Source: Lentisphaeria bacterium UBA2565
Lineage (GTDB): Bacteria > Verrucomicrobiota > Lentisphaeria > UBA2565
Reading direction: 5' to 3'
DNA: 47,796 bases
Assembly: GCA_002340265.1 (NCBI GenBank)
Contig: DDLT01000235.1
Span: forward strand, 1 to 47,796
The notes under the pieces are model-generated. The model worked only from the letters and a program-made list of their open reading frames with translations. It had not been told where the DNA came from and searched no databases. Numbering within the stretch: position 1 is the stretch's first letter; each line of letters begins with the position of its first letter. Made by a program: the position numbers and the translations under genes. Below are positions 7,137 through 25,755 of the stretch, piece by piece.

Positions 7137-7153
7137 ATTGAGGGAAGTCTGAC
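7137..7153 (+). promoter_or_regulatory. single copy of the island motif ATTGAGGGAAGTCTGAC
   Basis: Exact 17/17 match to the central units of the 21-bp tandem array at 12413-12475, in the same orientation. It lies about 130 bp upstream of the 7285 start. Confidence 0.6.
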
Positions 7154-7284
7154 AGCGGGGGCGTTAATAAAATTTTTTATTACGGTTTTCTTATTATAAA
7201 ATTGAACTATTTTGGAAAGTAAAACAAACATTATCAAGCTGTATTTGCAATTTTAAATCGTTTGACCGTAAGGTTCGTCATAGA

Positions 7285-7767
7285 ATGAATTTAGATCAGA
7301 TAGAACATAAAGAGAATCTCTACGTTTATTTTGCTGCGGATGCGCTGAAGTTACATACAGGTGAGTCTCCCAACCTTGAGGGACTTCTATTTCTTCTAAC
7401 TACTGGCGATGTCAGCCAAAAAATAAAGCTAAAAGATCAATTCCTTGCCTCGTCTATGGCCTCATATTGGAAAAGTGAATTAGAACACTTTCAAGTCAGT
7501 TACGATATGTGGCTAGACTCCTTTGATATTTCGCTTTCCAAATACCAGAAAAGTAAATTGAACCATCTTGATGCAGTTAAAAGCATGAGGATTGACAAAG
7601 CCAAGAAAGAGGAACTTATCTACCTACTATTTAATCTAAACTTAGTTCGAAATAATGAAGTTCCCATCTTAAATCATCCCAAAAAATTAGTTAAGGCCTT
7701 TCTGAATGATTCCAAAAAAGAAATTGCCAAACTACAACATGAAACTTTGGAGCTATTGAATTCATGA
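7285..7767 (+). CDS. hypothetical protein translationally coupled to Fic
   Basis: 160 aa. The stop overlaps the fic ATG (ATGA at 7764-7767). No recognisable family. Contains SPNLEG, which fits the [ST]xxxE[GN] pattern. Confidence 0.65.
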   Translation: MNLDQIEHKENLYVYFAADALKLHTGESPNLEGLLFLLTTGDVSQKIKLKDQFLASSMASYWKSELEHFQVSYDMWLDSFDISLSKYQKSKLNHLDAVKSMRIDKAKKEELIYLLFNLNLVRNNEVPILNHPKKLVKAFLNDSKKEIAKLQHETLELLNS

Positions 7768-8543
7768 AGTTTTTGGAGAAATACCCCAAGGACGTCAGAA
7801 CTGCTATCTTTGACGAAATTAAGCTGAAATGGACATTTCACTCGACTGGTTTGGAGGGCAATACCCTTACTTTAGGAGAGACCAAAGATGTAATTGCCGG
7901 AATGACTATTTCCGGGCATAGTTTGGTGGAACATAAAGAAGTTTATGAGCACGTACGGGCGATTGATCTTGTTAGCGAACTTCTTGATCAAGGTGGAAAA
8001 ATATCTCTCGACTACTTAAACCGACTCAATCATGCGGTTATGGATAAATTGACTGTCGATGTGATGGCACCTGTAGGTGAACTGAAATGTCAGGACAATG
8101 GTTGTCAGGTTTTTGTTGACGGTAGGCTTAAATGGATTCAATATTCACCAGTTGAGGTTACCGAACCTTTAATGAGAAAATGGATAAAGTTGTTCAATGG
8201 GGCAAATGTAAACTCATTTGATGACGCTATAAAACTGTTCGCTCAATTACACATAAGCTTTACTTCCATTCACCCTTATGCCGATGGTAATGGACGAATG
8301 GCTCGACTCCTTTCAAATATACCAGTTTTACTTGCTGGCTACCCACCTATCATTTTAAGCAGGGAAAACAAAGAGGAATATATTAGCATTCTTTCTCAAT
8401 ACTGCCGCAATGGCGGAATTCCCAATCATACGAATGATGAATTGGTAATGCTTGGCGAAGAGTTTGATAAGTTTGAGATTTTTGTAAAAAAAGAGTCTCA
8501 AGCGGTTTACGAGCTTCTATCTAAATACGAAAAACCGCAGTAA
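7764..8543 (+). CDS. Fic/Fido domain protein (putative AMPylase), class II-like
   Basis: Fic active-site motif HPYADGNGRMAR (HxFx[DE]GNGRxxR with F to Y). N-terminal HSTGLEGNTLTL matches the inhibitory [ST]xxxE[GN] helix. 259 aa. Confidence 0.9.
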   Translation: MKFLEKYPKDVRTAIFDEIKLKWTFHSTGLEGNTLTLGETKDVIAGMTISGHSLVEHKEVYEHVRAIDLVSELLDQGGKISLDYLNRLNHAVMDKLTVDVMAPVGELKCQDNGCQVFVDGRLKWIQYSPVEVTEPLMRKWIKLFNGANVNSFDDAIKLFAQLHISFTSIHPYADGNGRMARLLSNIPVLLAGYPPIILSRENKEEYISILSQYCRNGGIPNHTNDELVMLGEEFDKFEIFVKKESQAVYELLSKYEKPQ

Positions 8544-11858: not shown

Positions 11859-12370
11859 GGTATGCCTCGTTATCTTTTGTTTTATGGAAGCTCCAAAGTA
11901 AAAAAGGGCAAATTTTTCATGTTAATTTACGAACTAAACTACCACATTCCATGAAGAGGCAACTTGGAGAGTATGTCCAAAGCACACCTGTATTATGCCG
12001 TGCATCTCTTGTATAAAAGTGGAAGTTTTGTCGTAGGAAATGAGCACTCAAAATGAGTAATAAATTGTAATTGACCTATTTTTTACGTTAAATGTTTATT
12101 AATCAGATAAACATAAACCTTTGTGGTTTGGCTAAATAGAACATGTTAAAAAGGTAACCATAATTGCTAAAATATCTTGCTGTAAACTCAAAGTTTCTGC
12201 AATTATATGTATTTATAAGTCGCAAGTATAAGACAGTATACTGTGTTCCTTGAGGTATAAGTCTCCTCTGTTAAGCTGTGTTGGTAGTGTAGGATGCAAC
12301 TACCTTTGAGCAACAATTTAACAATCGTTCAACTATACTGTTAATATAAACTTTTGATAGTCTGTTTGAA

Positions 12371-12517
12371 GTTGAGGGAAGTCTGAATGGAGTTGAGGGA
12401 AGTCTGACGGGAATTGAGGGAAGTCTGACGGGAATTGAGGGAAGTCTGACGGGAATTGAGGGAAGTCTGACGGGAGTTGAGGGAAGTGTGAATGGAGTTG
12501 AGGAAAGTCTGAATGAA
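12371..12517 (+). repeat. 7 x 21-bp perfect-phase tandem repeat (iteron-like / operator array)
   Basis: Units begin at 12371, 12392, 12413, 12434, 12455, 12476 and 12497. Consensus is RTTGAGGGAAGTCTGAMKGGA. The three central units are identical (ATTGAGGGAAGTCTGACGGGA) and the outer units diverge. Confidence 0.95.
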
Positions 12518-12714
12518 TGTGAGAAATGATATTTTTACCTTTCTTAATACTCACGTCACTAAAATAGATCAAGATTGGGCAATTTAGGAAATATGTCTGG
12601 CAAAAATTTCTTGACGCGTTAGAATACGTTAGCCGAAAAGTTTGAAGATAGCATGCTTTAAACTGGTCGGGGTATTCAACAAAAAAGTAAAAAAACAAAG
12701 AAAGGGTCAAACTT

Positions 12715-13371
12715 ATGGCAACAATTAGAAAAGGGGAGGCTGAAACTCTCGAACGGGCACGTGTCGCTTTAAACAATGCAACGCAACAACCAGAAATTGC
12801 CGCTGCGTTGGATAAAGAGGGGTATACTGCTGAAGTCATTGCCGAAGGAATTGCAGTATTGCAAGAAACTTTAACTACTTATAACCAAAATAGAGTAGAG
12901 CATGATGAAAAGTCTGCGGCTTATGCGTTGTTTACTGCTAAAAAAGAGTCAGTGATTAAAGCTTATCGAAAAGATAGAAAGAAGGCAAAGGTGGTTTTTC
13001 ACCATGATCATGTTGCAGGAGATAAGTTGGGGATTTTAAAATCTGTACCAGGTTCTTTTGTTGGTTGGCTTGAGCAGGTGAAGAGGTTTTATACATCAGC
13101 TTTGGCAGATGCAGATATACAAACTGCTCTTGGTAGACTGAAAATTACAAGTGATACCCTCACCGCAACAAACACTCTTATTGCTGAATTGGAGGATGCA
13201 CGTGCGGCATATCTTCGTGAGCGAGGAGAATCGCAGGATGCTGTAAAGGTGAAAGATGCGGCATTCCAGAGACTTGATGAGTGGATGAGTGATTTTTATG
13301 TGGTGGCTCGAATTGCCTTGGAGGATCATCCTCAACTATTGGAAGCGTTAGACAAGAGTGTGAAGAGTTAG
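12715..13371 (+). CDS. hypothetical all-helical protein
   Basis: 218 aa with no family recognised. It is followed by a clear terminator. The start sits about 200 bp downstream of the repeat array. Confidence 0.7.
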   Translation: MATIRKGEAETLERARVALNNATQQPEIAAALDKEGYTAEVIAEGIAVLQETLTTYNQNRVEHDEKSAAYALFTAKKESVIKAYRKDRKKAKVVFHHDHVAGDKLGILKSVPGSFVGWLEQVKRFYTSALADADIQTALGRLKITSDTLTATNTLIAELEDARAAYLRERGESQDAVKVKDAAFQRLDEWMSDFYVVARIALEDHPQLLEALDKSVKS

Positions 13372-13387
13372 CAAGGTTAACTTTTGA

Positions 13388-13416
13388 AGCCGGGAATTTA
13401 GTTCTCGGCTTTTTTA
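13388..13416 (+). terminator. rho-independent terminator
   Basis: agccgggaa-tttag-ttctcggct stem followed by tttttatt. Confidence 0.7.
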
Positions 13417-21843: not shown

Positions 21844-24800
21844 CTATTTTAGAATTAAATCTTCATCTTCAGTCGTTGAATTGAAAATCCAGTAGCCAGT
21901 TGCAGGAAGCAGGAAGTCTCCATTGTTAAGCGGAGCATAGTCTTGGGCTCCATGGTTCCACTCGTTGGCATTTTGCATTGTACTTTTACTGTTATATAAA
22001 TATCTTGCAGCTGGTCCAACTAAATTCCAACCAGGCTTAACGGTAACTGTTTTGATACTGTATATTCCAGAGAATTTAATTGGTTCCACTGGGATATTTA
22101 CGCAAAATGCCCAGAAGCCCGTTAATGGCTGTAATTTAGACTTAAGAAAGTCAAGGTTTACTTGGTTGATTACGTCTCCTTTGCTATCCCATATACTGTC
22201 GATAGTAGACTTAGCAACCGTATCATAAGTTTGGTTAGTCGGGGTATATATAGAGATGCTTTCAACATATGACATCATTTCGTGTAATTTTGTTTCATCA
22301 ATTTCATTTGGTAATGAAATCATATTCCAGCCAATTTGTAAATCAAGGTCAAATTCGTAGGGGTGAGTCCCATTGGTGAATTCATCATAATCACTGATAC
22401 CATCACCGTCTGAGTCTTGGTTGCCGCCACTAGATAGTTCGGTACTTCCAAAATATATTTCTTCCCACATATCTGATATAGAGTCATTATCTAGGTCACT
22501 GTCAAAGCTTGCAGAGTTTCGCCAAAATATCGTAGTTTTGGTTACTGACGAGTTACCTAGGGTGTCATATGCGAAAAAATGAAGATCATAACGCCCATAG
22601 TTCATCTCGGGGAAATCTTCTGCCTTAAAGTAGTATTCTGGTATTGCTAAAAGTGAATCGATACTATTTGACTCGAAGACTTTGCCTGTTTTGTCACTTG
22701 TAAGAGTAAATCGATAACCTGCTATTTCACTACCACTATCTCCAGCAGTACTACCTTCACAGTAAATTTGGCTGTCAATGATACCAACGCCAGAGTGGGC
22801 TCTAGCTTCATCCCATGTTGGCCTTAAAATCAATGGGCTATTCGGTCCTGTTCTATCAACGTTGAAAGTATGTTTGCTCCATAAAAGTTGTTCATCATTC
22901 AAGGTACCCCCCGAATCTTCTGGATTAATTTTGGTATAAACTTTCATGGTAACGTTAAACAATTCTGATACAGAACTTATATCAATGTCAAGTTCAGTCC
23001 CACCGTTGATAAGTTCCGCTTTTTGCTCATCTGATAATGTCGTTACATAAATCGGGTCTAGATCACCGCTTTCTGATGCGTGATAACTGATGTTTATTCT
23101 GTTGAGGTAAGCCTCAGGGATATTGTTCTCCCAGTCACCCTTTAGGGTTAACGAGATTGAGTTTTTGTAGGAAGAGTTAGTTCCAAGTTTAGCTGATCGC
23201 GGTTTTTCTCCACGAACTTGTACTGACGGATCTCCAAAAAAGTGATACATCTTATTATTTTGGTCATAAGTCGTGTATTTTTTCGCATATTCATAAACTT
23301 CGCCCCAGGTTATTGACTCATCTGTTGAAATTTTGTGCACTATTTTATTTGCAAAGTTAGCTTCCCAAGATGCTCCAGCCAAACTACTTGCTGCTATGAT
23401 ATTAACTGCACCTTTTCGGTGATCCCCAGGAGCTGTGATATTGTCTCCTGTCTCGGATGCAAGCTTTCCTGCAATATATTGATAGCACAATGGAGCATAA
23501 TACGCTGAGTACTTTGCATTATGGTAACTTGCCATAAAGAAGCGACCTGTATTACAGGTAGCCCATACAAAACATCCAGGTTTTGTAATACCGAAATTGT
23601 TACTTTCACCATTGTTATCATCCTTATAGTCAATGGACTTAAGAACCTTATAGTTATCTAGGAATTCAGATGCCCCATGCCCTTGATAAATTGAGTTTGT
23701 AATCCCGGTTATATTAGAATTTATGATTTTACCATTCATTTTATCTGCCCCAGTATAAGGCGTTGTACTCGAGTTATCGTCAGTTATGGCTTCATTAACA
23801 TCGTCAAGCATGATAGTAGGTAGCTTATCCCCATGGTGCTTCAATTGTTTCTCGGAAAAGGATGCCCCCTCGTTTTCACCGGCCAAGAGAGAAAAGGTAT
23901 CAGGCGCCTTATAGTCAATACGCTTTTTTAGCCAGGATGTTAGGTCTGACTCTGTATAAACAGGAAGGCGAGCAATTACTTTGTCAAGCTTATTCCAGTT
24001 GCAGTATATATCATCACTACTAGTGAAACCTCCCTGAGAACTATAGAAATAACCTGTTGGTACCCCAGGTGTTTGTACATGGTATTTAACAGGAGAATTT
24101 TTCTTGTAGTCAGGAGAGGTAGAACTGACTAAGAGGACATTTCTCAAGTGTGGGTTTTGATTCAGAAAGTTGATAATCCCATGAGGCCCATAAATCCCAC
24201 CTCCGTAAACATCAATAATTTGTTCAATTGTAACATATATGGGGCTAACGCCTGCAATTTCGTGAACCGCTTGAATCTTCGGCTCAGTTGTATCTCCGTC
24301 TTCGTCAATGTCAGTTGTATCCTTTAGCTCATGCCAAATTTTATAAAGATCTGAACTTATATAACTACTGTTATTTTGCCAAGGAGCTAAAGTATAATCG
24401 GAGAAGTCATCTTCTCCCGGTAACTTAGTTTGTCTTAATTGCTGGAAATAGTTATAATCGCTAGGAATTATCGCAACGTAGTCCTTTTGGTTTGTGTTTA
24501 CTGCCCTTAGCTCTTTTTCTTCATCAAATGTTAGGGGACTGGAGCTCCCTCTAACGGGCCCTGATGTTACGTGTATGCTTTTGAAAGTCCCCGGTATAGT
24601 GAAAATGTTTGAATCATTTTTTGAGCCTATTAATGATTCTTTACCGACTTTATTTCCCATGTTAACTGCTATGTTTGCATTGTATAGCCTAATAGTTCCG
24701 CTGTACTCTTCAGCCACTTTTATGTTGAGATGCGGTGGCAGGGCTCCATATTCACTGTTAGGAAGGTCTGTGTTCACTTTAGCAGGCTCAAGTTTATATC

Positions 24801-25755
24801 CTTCATCGTCTTGCTCTCCTTCTTCAAGAACTGGTACGTATAGTTCGAAAATATCAGGATAGACTTTAAAGCCATCAAGTGGGGTCACTGTTATTCGAGC
24901 ATTGGTGGCTCTGTTTAATACTGCAGACGGAAACTCTGCTTCAAATAAAAATTGACCAATACTGTTTAGATGACAGTTTATTGTGTGTGTATCATTAATC
25001 TTTACCTCTATGGTGCGTAGCTCAGAGCTGTGGTTGTCACTGTCATAGGTTGATAAAATCAACTTTGCATTCTTGTTCATATTTACTTTAGGAGTGTCAA
25101 GAGGTATGTCATAATTCTGGGTTGTTGTTATTTTTTTCCCATTCCAAGGAGTTCCATTTGCCCCACTTAGTGCCAAGTTTAGATATAAACTTTCATCTTT
25201 TTTGTAAATTCGGGTCATCTCTCCATTAGCATTCACAACAGCGTTGTATCCATTATTTCCTAGCCAGTTTGTCTCCTGAGTTTGGTTGGATAACGTTATC
25301 GGAGTAGACGCAAGGTTTTGGATCGTAAGATCGCCTGCCCAAACGTAGTTTCGGTTAGTGTAGAAGTCATCCACGGGTTGAACAAACGTGTACCAATTAT
25401 TGCCTAGTTTGTAGAGAGGCAGTTTTACTCCCGCATTGTAAATTGAGAAGTTTTGTCCCTGTTTATGAAATCCGATAGTCTGTGCATTTGAATTTTTTAC
25501 TTCAGTTACATCTGAAAGATCGAGATTACCTTCTGAATCCCTAAATGGTATAGCTTCTGTAATATTGTACAAGCCGGCAATTGCGATAGGTTCAGATCTT
25601 CTTGCATAACCTGTTTGAACAGGAGTTTCTGTCGTATAAAGCCTTCTATGCCCGTCAAAATGTACTTTTTGACCAACCACAGACATTGTTTCACAGTATG
25701 TCTTAGTTGCTGAAAATAGTGAAACTAAAAATAGAAAAACATATTTTTTTATCAT
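21844..25755 (-). CDS. large secreted protein with probable clan CD (gingipain/C25-like) protease core and Ca-binding TSP3-like repeats
   Basis: 1303 aa, signal peptide MIKKYVFLFLVSLFSA. Candidate His/Cys dyad IYQGHGASEF ... GCFVWATCNTGRFF, 35-41 residues apart. C-terminal DSDLDNDSISD / DSDGDGISDYDE acidic repeats. There is a 9-nt gap to the Wzm gene. Confidence 0.6.
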   Translation of the reverse strand: MIKKYVFLFLVSLFSATKTYCETMSVVGQKVHFDGHRRLYTTETPVQTGYARRSEPIAIAGLYNITEAIPFRDSEGNLDLSDVTEVKNSNAQTIGFHKQGQNFSIYNAGVKLPLYKLGNNWYTFVQPVDDFYTNRNYVWAGDLTIQNLASTPITLSNQTQETNWLGNNGYNAVVNANGEMTRIYKKDESLYLNLALSGANGTPWNGKKITTTQNYDIPLDTPKVNMNKNAKLILSTYDSDNHSSELRTIEVKINDTHTINCHLNSIGQFLFEAEFPSAVLNRATNARITVTPLDGFKVYPDIFELYVPVLEEGEQDDEGYKLEPAKVNTDLPNSEYGALPPHLNIKVAEEYSGTIRLYNANIAVNMGNKVGKESLIGSKNDSNIFTIPGTFKSIHVTSGPVRGSSSPLTFDEEKELRAVNTNQKDYVAIIPSDYNYFQQLRQTKLPGEDDFSDYTLAPWQNNSSYISSDLYKIWHELKDTTDIDEDGDTTEPKIQAVHEIAGVSPIYVTIEQIIDVYGGGIYGPHGIINFLNQNPHLRNVLLVSSTSPDYKKNSPVKYHVQTPGVPTGYFYSSQGGFTSSDDIYCNWNKLDKVIARLPVYTESDLTSWLKKRIDYKAPDTFSLLAGENEGASFSEKQLKHHGDKLPTIMLDDVNEAITDDNSSTTPYTGADKMNGKIINSNITGITNSIYQGHGASEFLDNYKVLKSIDYKDDNNGESNNFGITKPGCFVWATCNTGRFFMASYHNAKYSAYYAPLCYQYIAGKLASETGDNITAPGDHRKGAVNIIAASSLAGASWEANFANKIVHKISTDESITWGEVYEYAKKYTTYDQNNKMYHFFGDPSVQVRGEKPRSAKLGTNSSYKNSISLTLKGDWENNIPEAYLNRINISYHASESGDLDPIYVTTLSDEQKAELINGGTELDIDISSVSELFNVTMKVYTKINPEDSGGTLNDEQLLWSKHTFNVDRTGPNSPLILRPTWDEARAHSGVGIIDSQIYCEGSTAGDSGSEIAGYRFTLTSDKTGKVFESNSIDSLLAIPEYYFKAEDFPEMNYGRYDLHFFAYDTLGNSSVTKTTIFWRNSASFDSDLDNDSISDMWEEIYFGSTELSSGGNQDSDGDGISDYDEFTNGTHPYEFDLDLQIGWNMISLPNEIDETKLHEMMSYVESISIYTPTNQTYDTVAKSTIDSIWDSKGDVINQVNLDFLKSKLQPLTGFWAFCVNIPVEPIKFSGIYSIKTVTVKPGWNLVGPAARYLYNSKSTMQNANEWNHGAQDYAPLNNGDFLLPATGYWIFNSTTEDEDLILK

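Follow-up and report, generated by a model that had tools for sequence, protein, structure and literature searches.

Repeat-motif regulatory RNAs and leaders include the CsrB/RsmZ RNAs, which carry GGA repeats, and the trp leader, which carries triplet repeats bound by TRAP. Direct repeats of the heptamer TAACTGA are found 5' of start codons in Beggiatoaceae, Cyanobacteria and five Bacteroidetes, and a post-transcriptional factor (S1, Csp, CsrA) has been suspected, though not proven, to act on them (MacGregor 2015, PMC4679880). We describe here an array of direct repeats located in a stretch of 47,796 nucleotides of Lentisphaeria bacterium UBA2565 (GenBank assembly GCA_002340265.1, contig DDLT01000235.1), hereafter called the window. 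The array is made of seven phased units of 21 nt (12371-12517, + strand), and precedes a gene (12715-13371, + strand) encoding a protein of 218 amino acids (aa) of the PQLLE family. Arrays with a period of 21 or 42 nt accompany PQLLE genes throughout the family, and array and gene are regarded as an established, family-wide module. In our judgement the chances are evenly balanced that the array is transcribed as a hypervariable repeat leader and works in the RNA, via a trans-acting factor.

The nearest described phenomenon is that of the TAACTGA heptamer repeats. Both kinds of repeats are intergenic, are found in the forward orientation and end a few to tens of nucleotides before a start codon, the gap being longer (198 nt) in the window. 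In both, the copy number is variable, assemblies are broken, and the downstream genes have no common function. Unlike the heptamers, the arrays described here have a 21-nt unit with no 7-nt sub-period, are made of lineage-specific, unrelated sequences, and feature a near-obligate link to one protein family (76/78 loci). The array shares with CsrB/RsmZ and the trp leader many evenly spaced, short purine motifs in RNA predicted to be single-stranded, which makes multivalent binding possible, but the motifs are not found in hairpin loops. The window unit holds two GGA motifs, which makes 14 across the array, whereas most other PQLLE arrays lack GGA (e.g. GAAGCAA...AAATGTAA). At the gathering threshold, the only Rfam matches in the window and in 34 related loci were tRNA, Bacteroidales-1 and SRP, all off the arrays. 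No description of 21-bp arrays in Bacteroidetes and no mention of PQLLE were found in the literature searched.

Repeat arrays upstream of PQLLE genes

The array is by a wide margin the top-scoring tandem repeat of the window. Tandem Repeats Finder places it at 12370-12512, with period 21, 6.8 copies, 92% matches, no indels and a score of 223. Read directly, its units are in 5' to 3' order GTTGAGGGAAGTCTGAATGGA, GTTGAGGGAAGTCTGACGGGA, three copies of ATTGAGGGAAGTCTGACGGGA, GTTGAGGGAAGTGTGAATGGA and GTTGAGGAAAGTCTGAATGAA, and share the core GTTGAGGGAAGT; the middle three do not differ from one another, and the edge units are diverged. A degenerate eighth unit (12350-12370, + strand), matching the consensus at 12/21 positions, leads the array, and the repeat register reaches this far upstream. 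The 15-nt core, allowing up to 3 mismatches, has 10 matches in the window against 1.7 expected, and none of 100 shuffles reached 10. The array has 49.7% G+C and is 72% purine on the + strand. It lies in an 856-bp intergenic region (11859-12714) with 35.6% G+C, against 40.3% for the whole window, and ends 198 nt before the start of the open reading frame (ORF) of the 218-aa protein. An earlier note, made from the letters of the window alone, had described seven phased repeats with an identical centre and degenerate edges, set in an A+T-rich region about 200 bp 5' of this ORF, and all these points hold.

When GTDB was scanned with each species represented by one genome, at least 221 loci with PQLLE relatives were obtained, 80 of which were fetched. 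The loci come from Bacteroidota genomes, and are frequently found several per genome and near contig ends. The lag test was carried out on 78 homologous loci, the other family counts on 69 non-redundant loci. Tandem Repeats Finder detects arrays of period 21, 42 or 63 just 5' of the gene in most PQLLE loci. Within the 400 nt 5' of the gene, the best autocorrelation lag is 42 in 58/78 loci and 21 in 18/78, 76/78 in all. The array is tied to the 218-aa ORF, 5' of which the earlier note had placed it. Over the 69 loci the mean identity reaches 0.517 (lag 21), 0.516 (lag 42) and 0.484 (lag 63), from a baseline of 0.289 +/- 0.014. No family-wide signal was found at lags 7, 10, 11 and 14 (0.304 at lag 7 and 0.305 at lag 14). 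A 10.5-nt, OmpR-like half-site, which fits the window unit by eye, was rejected for the lack of a signal at lags 10 and 11 across the family.

PQLLE arrays are always found on the strand of the gene. Their sense strand is rich in purines, the mean fraction being 0.65 (above 0.6 in 62/69 loci), against 0.53 further upstream. Unit sequences vary by lineage, as exemplified by GAAGCAACGCAAATGTAAGTC, TAAGGAATGCATGGGAAGCCA and GCCCGGTAGCAAAACACCGTC, and the several PQLLE paralogues of a genome have each their own repeat sequence. The best circular alignments of the window unit to the units of other lineages match at 8-12 of 21 positions, no better than shuffles, and homology between lineages is therefore not claimed at the level of the unit. 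A start-stop mini-ORF in each unit (AUGUAA, UUG...UGA) is not general, as Prolixibacter units have no start codon. Similarly, a Shine-Dalgarno (SD)-like motif in each unit (TAAGGAG, AAGGAA) is present only in some unit classes. Period, position, strand and composition are conserved across the family, the sequence of the unit is not.

The arrays could be functionless minisatellites, slippage products tolerated in a long leader, in which the period is kept by descent and unequal crossing-over. Such an origin would account for the identical centre and degenerate edges, for the fast changes in copy number reported below, for the 42/63-nt higher-order structure, which is typical of satellites, and for the scattering of similar arrays over unrelated intergenic regions, as well as for the lack of unit conservation between lineages. 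It fits poorly with a periodic array being kept in nearly all loci and in several orders despite a complete turnover of the unit, with constant strand, composition and position, and with cores near-invariant within arrays. We consider a functionless minisatellite distinctly unlikely.

Predicted promoter, leader and initiation signals

The Bacteroidetes -7 box fits the consensus TAHHTTTG, and is separated from the start site by 4-5 nt (PMC6847099). An exact match to the consensus, the predicted -7 box TACCTTTG, is found at 12301-12308 (+ strand), and is kept in the relative L012. From its position transcription is predicted to start at ~12313-12314, which would give the mRNA of the 218-aa gene a leader of ~400 nt; leaders measure on average 33 nt in Flavobacterium johnsoniae (PMC6847099). 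Just 3' of the predicted start site is the conserved motif ATTTAACAATCGTTC (12316-12331, + strand). Like motifs (ttATATTTAACAWTnrGTTC) are located just 5' of arrays in many distant PQLLE loci, L014, L019, L025, L047, L061, L065 and L066 among them, and may be either a promoter-proximal element or the 5' end of the RNA. With up to 3 mismatches allowed, the motif TTTAACAATCGTTC (12317-12330) is no more frequent in the window than chance would have it. A 22-nt unit, GTTTAACAATCGTTCCGCTATG, is repeated 2.2 times at 1763-1811, at the 3' end of a minus-strand gene (1809-2699), and its copies resemble TTTAACAATCGTTC with 1-2 mismatches.

The array RNA is predicted to fold no more strongly than its own shuffles (z = +0.9), and the same holds for the opposite strand. 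The rest of the predicted leader (12518-12714, + strand) includes, as read from the sequence, an A-rich translation initiation region. The block AAAATAGnTnAAGAnTTGnCAATTTAG found therein is kept in L011, a relative 77% identical. No terminator was found on the + strand in 12518-12714, and the folding z-score of the spacer between array and ATG is weak (-1.2). The contig of ~1 kb that was tried for reading transcript ends is a low-coverage metagenome contig.

Comparable signals surround the arrays of the family. Exact TAHHTTTG boxes are found within 150 nt 5' of the array in 15/69 loci, against 3.7 expected, and none was found in the 69 loci either within arrays or between array and ATG. Near-consensus boxes, such as TATATTTA, are located 5' of many other arrays. 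The periodic region usually stops 1-50 nt short of the ATG, and this leaves no room for a promoter in between. G+C-rich hairpins of differing sequence occupy positions -50 to -17 in 16/69 loci (L044, L071, L073, L042 and L079 are examples), against 2.3 +/- 1.5 in shuffles. The hairpins have no T runs, and none is found in the window; their excess makes it likely that the -50 to -17 stretch is RNA. A occupies position -12 in 94% of loci, position -11 in 84% and position -13 in 66%, and the last 30 nt are nearly G-free; the A positions correspond to determinants of efficient initiation in Bacteroidetes (PMC6847099). Position of the promoter boxes, proximity to the ATG, hairpins and A-rich initiation region together point to arrays transcribed as mRNA 5' leaders, and not to DNA-binding arrays 5' of the promoter.

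The array of the window would hence be the local version of a tandem-repeat 5' leader preceding PQLLE genes throughout Bacteroidota. Transcription would start at about 12313, just past the -7 box, and 7-8 repeats would be copied into the leader of the 218-aa gene. The leader RNA, unstructured and rich in purines, would show a 12-nt core (GUUGAGGGAAGU) every 21 nt, and could serve as a multivalent, single-stranded cis-regulatory platform for a trans-acting factor, plausibly the SD-independent Bacteroidota ribosome/S1 or else an RNA-binding protein. How well the PQLLE mRNA is translated, or how stable it is, would be set by this binding. As the number of units changes by strand slippage (5 to about 20 have been seen), valency would change with it, and expression would in this way be tuned. 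What we infer is where transcription starts, that the array works as RNA, and that a binding factor exists and what it might be.

Several observations weigh against such a leader. The start site is predicted only, and exact -7 boxes are found 5' of the arrays in just the 15 loci mentioned. In the lineage of the window array and ATG are far apart, and a second promoter in the 198-nt gap would put the array 5' of the promoter. Orientation and period are co-inherited with the linked gene, and the 69 loci are not independent. Position-specific conservation within arrays can be partly explained by 42-nt higher-order repeats. The binding factor is a proposed one. Finally, 21 bp equal two turns of the helix, a period predicted if the sites act on one face of the DNA, and left unexplained by a role in RNA.

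The upstream half of the intergenic region (11859-12300) aligns to positions 4107-4560 of L012 in high-identity blocks, with 82% identity overall. The conserved blocks, among them cactcaaaatgagtaataaattgtaat and one around ctgcaattata...tatttataagtcgcaag, may hold signals for the divergent 759-aa gene, or be a further element.

Copy number and satellite copy

The 218-aa protein is encoded without a single change on 14 metagenome contigs, and several of these come from coral black-band-disease samples. Contigs spanning the array carry 5 (L002), 7 (five contigs and the window) or 8 (L003) units, as counted in short-read assemblies, in which identical units may be collapsed or expanded. The differences are confined to the count of identical central units, and 1 kb on each side of the array is 100% identical among the 5-, 7- and 8-unit contigs. 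In the relative L012, whose protein is 98% identical, the array has ~20 units, which keep the core and vary in their 3' halves. The core GTTGAGGGAAGT features just 4 substitutions over 27 units of two lineages, and differences among units cluster at fixed positions. Four contigs start within the array, which thus breaks short-read assemblies. The comparison of repeat number between strains that the earlier note had suggested reveals arrays of different length in identical flanks. That note had also thought of a variable-number tandem repeat working as a phase switch. The variation in length stands, with the caveat on assemblies given above. We think it unlikely that a switch would work by promoter spacing, since the array does not separate promoter elements; it follows the predicted -7 box and does not overlap the ORF, away from the place that a phase-variable promoter switch would occupy.

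Gene callers have put ORFs on the arrays. One of 139 aa is found on the + strand of L012 (4645-5064), one of 73 aa on the minus strand of L006 (6498-6719). The database PQLLE proteins P0127, P0136 and P0216 feature 80-140 additional N-terminal residues, which may similarly be an artefact of gene calling on the array. A coding heptad repeat, (VEGSLNG)n, can be read in the one + frame open across the window array. In favour of it are the 139-aa ORF, called by JGI on the 20-unit version, and some unit variants that are synonymous in the VEGSLNG frame. In the window, however, this frame has a TAA 27 nt 5' of the array and no ATG, GTG or TTG before unit 6. In the 69 loci the longest + ORF in the 350 nt 5' of the gene has a median of 30 codons, and in-frame stops are found at a median of 15 nt before the ATG. 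A translated repeat protein, which the earlier note had named as a finding that would overturn its views, has been rejected: in the window the frame lacks a start codon, and in other loci the arrays are not covered by a conserved ORF.

The array resembles iterons, being formed by tandem direct repeats (7 x 21 bp, within the range of about 17-22 bp of iterons) phased at whole helical turns, located beside a gene in an A+T-rich region. It could accordingly be thought of as the origin of an integrated replicon, and its flanks are A+T-rich (33% G+C), a feature not specific to origins. Unlike iterons, the arrays are located between predicted promoter and start codon, and their composition is strand-biased. 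No Rep initiator is encoded nearby; the other neighbours of the array encode FGE-sulfatase-domain and alpha/beta-hydrolase proteins, and in 10 contigs chromosomal genes are found on either side of the locus. No DnaA box (TTATCCACA, up to 1 mismatch) was found in 11859-12714, and no PQLLE homologues were found in PLSDB plasmids or IMG/VR viral contigs. A cryptic replication origin, as well as an iteron-like handcuffing or titration array, had been put forward in the earlier note, and neither is borne out: the neighbour is not a Rep, and arrays of the 69 loci lie 3' of the -7 box and are purine-rich on the sense strand. We regard both a coding repeat and an origin as extremely improbable.

An exact copy of 17 nt of the array, ATTGAGGGAAGTCTGAC, is found at 7137-7153, on the same (+) strand, in the divergent region 5' of a gene pair encoding a 160-aa and a Fic-domain protein. 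ATTGAGGGAAGTCTGAC is the longest exact string common to array and satellite. By our own estimate, about 6e-6 copies of a 17-mer are expected by chance in 2 x 47.8 kb, and the satellite, already pointed out in the earlier note, is confirmed as lying far beyond chance. The leader of the 160-aa gene probably does not include it, because it is located ~90 nt 5' of the best -7-like box of this gene (TGTATTTG, 7240-7247). Five contigs of the same strain carry the satellite unchanged, and neither a terminator nor notable structure was found in the region (folding z-score -1.2). It may represent another site of the same factor, or the remnant of a local duplication. It could also be an antisense target of the array RNA, if the leader of the divergent 518-aa gene extends there. 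Only two distant clusters of homologues of the 160-aa protein have been found, in ICE-like contigs carrying genes for ArdC, a type IV secretion system coupling protein or a resolvase, and the satellite motif is absent from both. The genes for the 160-aa protein and the 259-aa Fic-domain protein overlap (7285-8543). The latter matches PDC-S04 and SoFic, which PADLOC lists as candidate defence families. All homologues found of the 160-aa protein are likewise paired with Fic genes, and the pair looks like a horizontally acquired module.

Satellite and period bear also on a reading at the DNA level, of the kind put forward in the earlier note, in which phased 21-bp sites on one face of the helix would form an operator or roadblock array, or a titration sink, and the satellite would be a second site of the regulon. 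The period corresponds to two helical turns and is conserved across the family, the sequence is not. The 17-nt copy is exact, and is found in another promoter region, probably outside a leader. In the window the array is 198 nt from the ATG, and sequence in between is conserved. In contrast, the purine strand is consistently the sense strand, and in most loci the arrays are found 3' of -7 boxes and adjoin the start codon. One array is located within an operon, between murG and murC (see below). No gene for a DNA-binding protein is linked to the array, and PQLLE proteins are acidic and have no recognisable DNA-binding domain. In the light of these data, we think an array acting at the DNA level unlikely.

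The PQLLE protein and arrays in other positions

The 218-aa protein matches over residues 6-213 the NCBIfam model NF052641, "PQLLE family protein" (237 bits against a cutoff of 80, E = 1.5e-70), a name that derives only from a conserved motif. No match was found in Pfam or PADLOC, no significant one in PHROGs, and none in the PDB by sequence. The AlphaFold2 model (predicted local distance difference test score, pLDDT, 88) is all-alpha, and Foldseek found no significant match to it in PDB or BFVD. Family members are acidic (isoelectric point 4.7-6.0). The family counts 2775 cluster representatives (50% identity, E <= 1e-3) in a large protein library; the named carriers are Bacteroidota, such as Prolixibacter, Draconibacterium, Saccharicrinis and Tenacibaculum. 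Between orders the protein keeps about 50-58% identity, which is unusually high. In the window the gene is followed by a terminator-like hairpin and a T run (13386-13412, + strand), which would close the unit and suggests that promoter, repeats, gene and terminator form a monocistronic unit. Elsewhere in the window, a 1303-aa ORF (21844-25755, minus strand) has a Peptidase_C25 (gingipain-type) domain, and is followed by ABC transporter genes.

Arrays are found also away from PQLLE genes. The commonest class of unit, taken as two adjacent copies (GAAGSAA-N3-AAWTGYAA-N3-GAAGSAA), served as pattern in a scan of metagenomes, and 35 of the 60 loci retrieved are true arrays. About 14 of these precede a PQLLE gene. 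Others are found, in sense orientation, 18-35 nt 5' of murC, of a purU-like gene and of tex. The array of L107 (about 2281-2691, pattern orientation) is located between murG and murC, 30 nt before the latter. Arrays of L101/L109, L097 and L064 (5238-5440) precede the purU-like gene by 18 nt, tex by 35 nt, and a gene for an S9/S33 hydrolase by 150 nt, all in sense orientation; a further array is located 450 nt 5' of rmuC. The sense orientation before murC, the purU-like gene and tex fits a leader or intercistronic RNA element.

About ten arrays make a multi-copy orphan family in two metagenomes (Ga0116193, Ga0208826), with 14-25 units each (L100, L105, L116, L118, L123, L138, L145, L151, L153). 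The flanks upstream are conserved, and the arrays are followed by a conserved, G+C-rich tail of ~340 nt with several hairpins. No ORF was found directly 3' of these arrays, and no Rfam match. The family is a candidate large repeat-containing non-coding RNA, or a candidate non-autonomous element.

The PQLLE module is autonomous, and its neighbours are variable. In L014, L015, L016, L017, L024 and the group L022/L023/L026 the module adjoins cation-efflux (CDF), YnfA, P-type ATPase and DUF302 genes. The 300 nt upstream are identical across Lentimicrobium, Paludibacter, Mangrovibacterium, Draconibacterium and Saccharicrinis. Identity in different genera indicates that this metal-resistance segment is mobile, and has recently spread with the PQLLE module.

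Autonomy and mobility are features also of type III toxin-antitoxin (TA) systems (toxIN, cptIN, tenpIN), which similarly have promoter, direct repeats and gene on one strand, the promoter being in our case a predicted one. The repeats would be processed to unit-length RNAs neutralising a PQLLE toxin, as ToxI does for ToxN. The order promoter, tandem direct repeats, hairpin (in the 16 loci mentioned) and gene is suggestive of such a system, as are the several paralogues per genome with different repeats, and the identical copies of the metal-resistance island in different genera. Known type III antitoxin repeats measure 34-45 nt, a length near the 42-nt super-period found in 58/78 loci. Known type III toxins are endoribonucleases, and their repeats fold into structured RNA (PMC8860590, PMC12283969, PMC4627078). 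The PQLLE protein is all-helical, and has no match to ToxN, CptN or TenpN, nor to any toxin or defence family in Pfam, PADLOC and NCBIfam. The repeats are predicted to be unstructured; no terminator separates repeats and gene in the window, and the hairpins of other loci lack T runs. Arrays of the same class precede housekeeping genes without PQLLE. Absence of the family from phage and plasmid collections (IMG/VR, PLSDB) and the unusual conservation of the protein are further points against a PQLLE toxin, and a type III TA-like system seems to us quite improbable.

A wider scheme may be drawn by analogy, though we attach little confidence to it. Bacteroidota, in which ribosomes disregard Shine-Dalgarno sequences, may have a system of post-transcriptional control not described before. 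Tandem 21-nt purine-rich leader repeats, always found with PQLLE and sometimes with genes such as murC, purU and tex, would be recognised by a factor dedicated to them, and the PQLLE protein might itself be this factor and act on its own leader. The orphan elements with the ~340-nt tail would work as decoy RNAs, in a logic like that of Csr/Rsm, but with unrelated parts.

The arrays are of practical concern, since they break short-read assemblies, many contigs ending inside them, and draw spurious gene calls, such as the 139-aa and 73-aa ORFs. They are also hypervariable strain markers. They are conserved, widespread and directly testable. If the leader reading is correct, one uncharacterised family would carry a leader that exceeds the 33-nt mean of F. 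johnsoniae about tenfold, formed by repeats in which period, strand and position are kept while the sequence is completely turned over. The arrays would then provide a testable handle on post-transcriptional control in a phylum in which initiation is not guided by Shine-Dalgarno sequences, and few cis-regulatory RNA elements are known.

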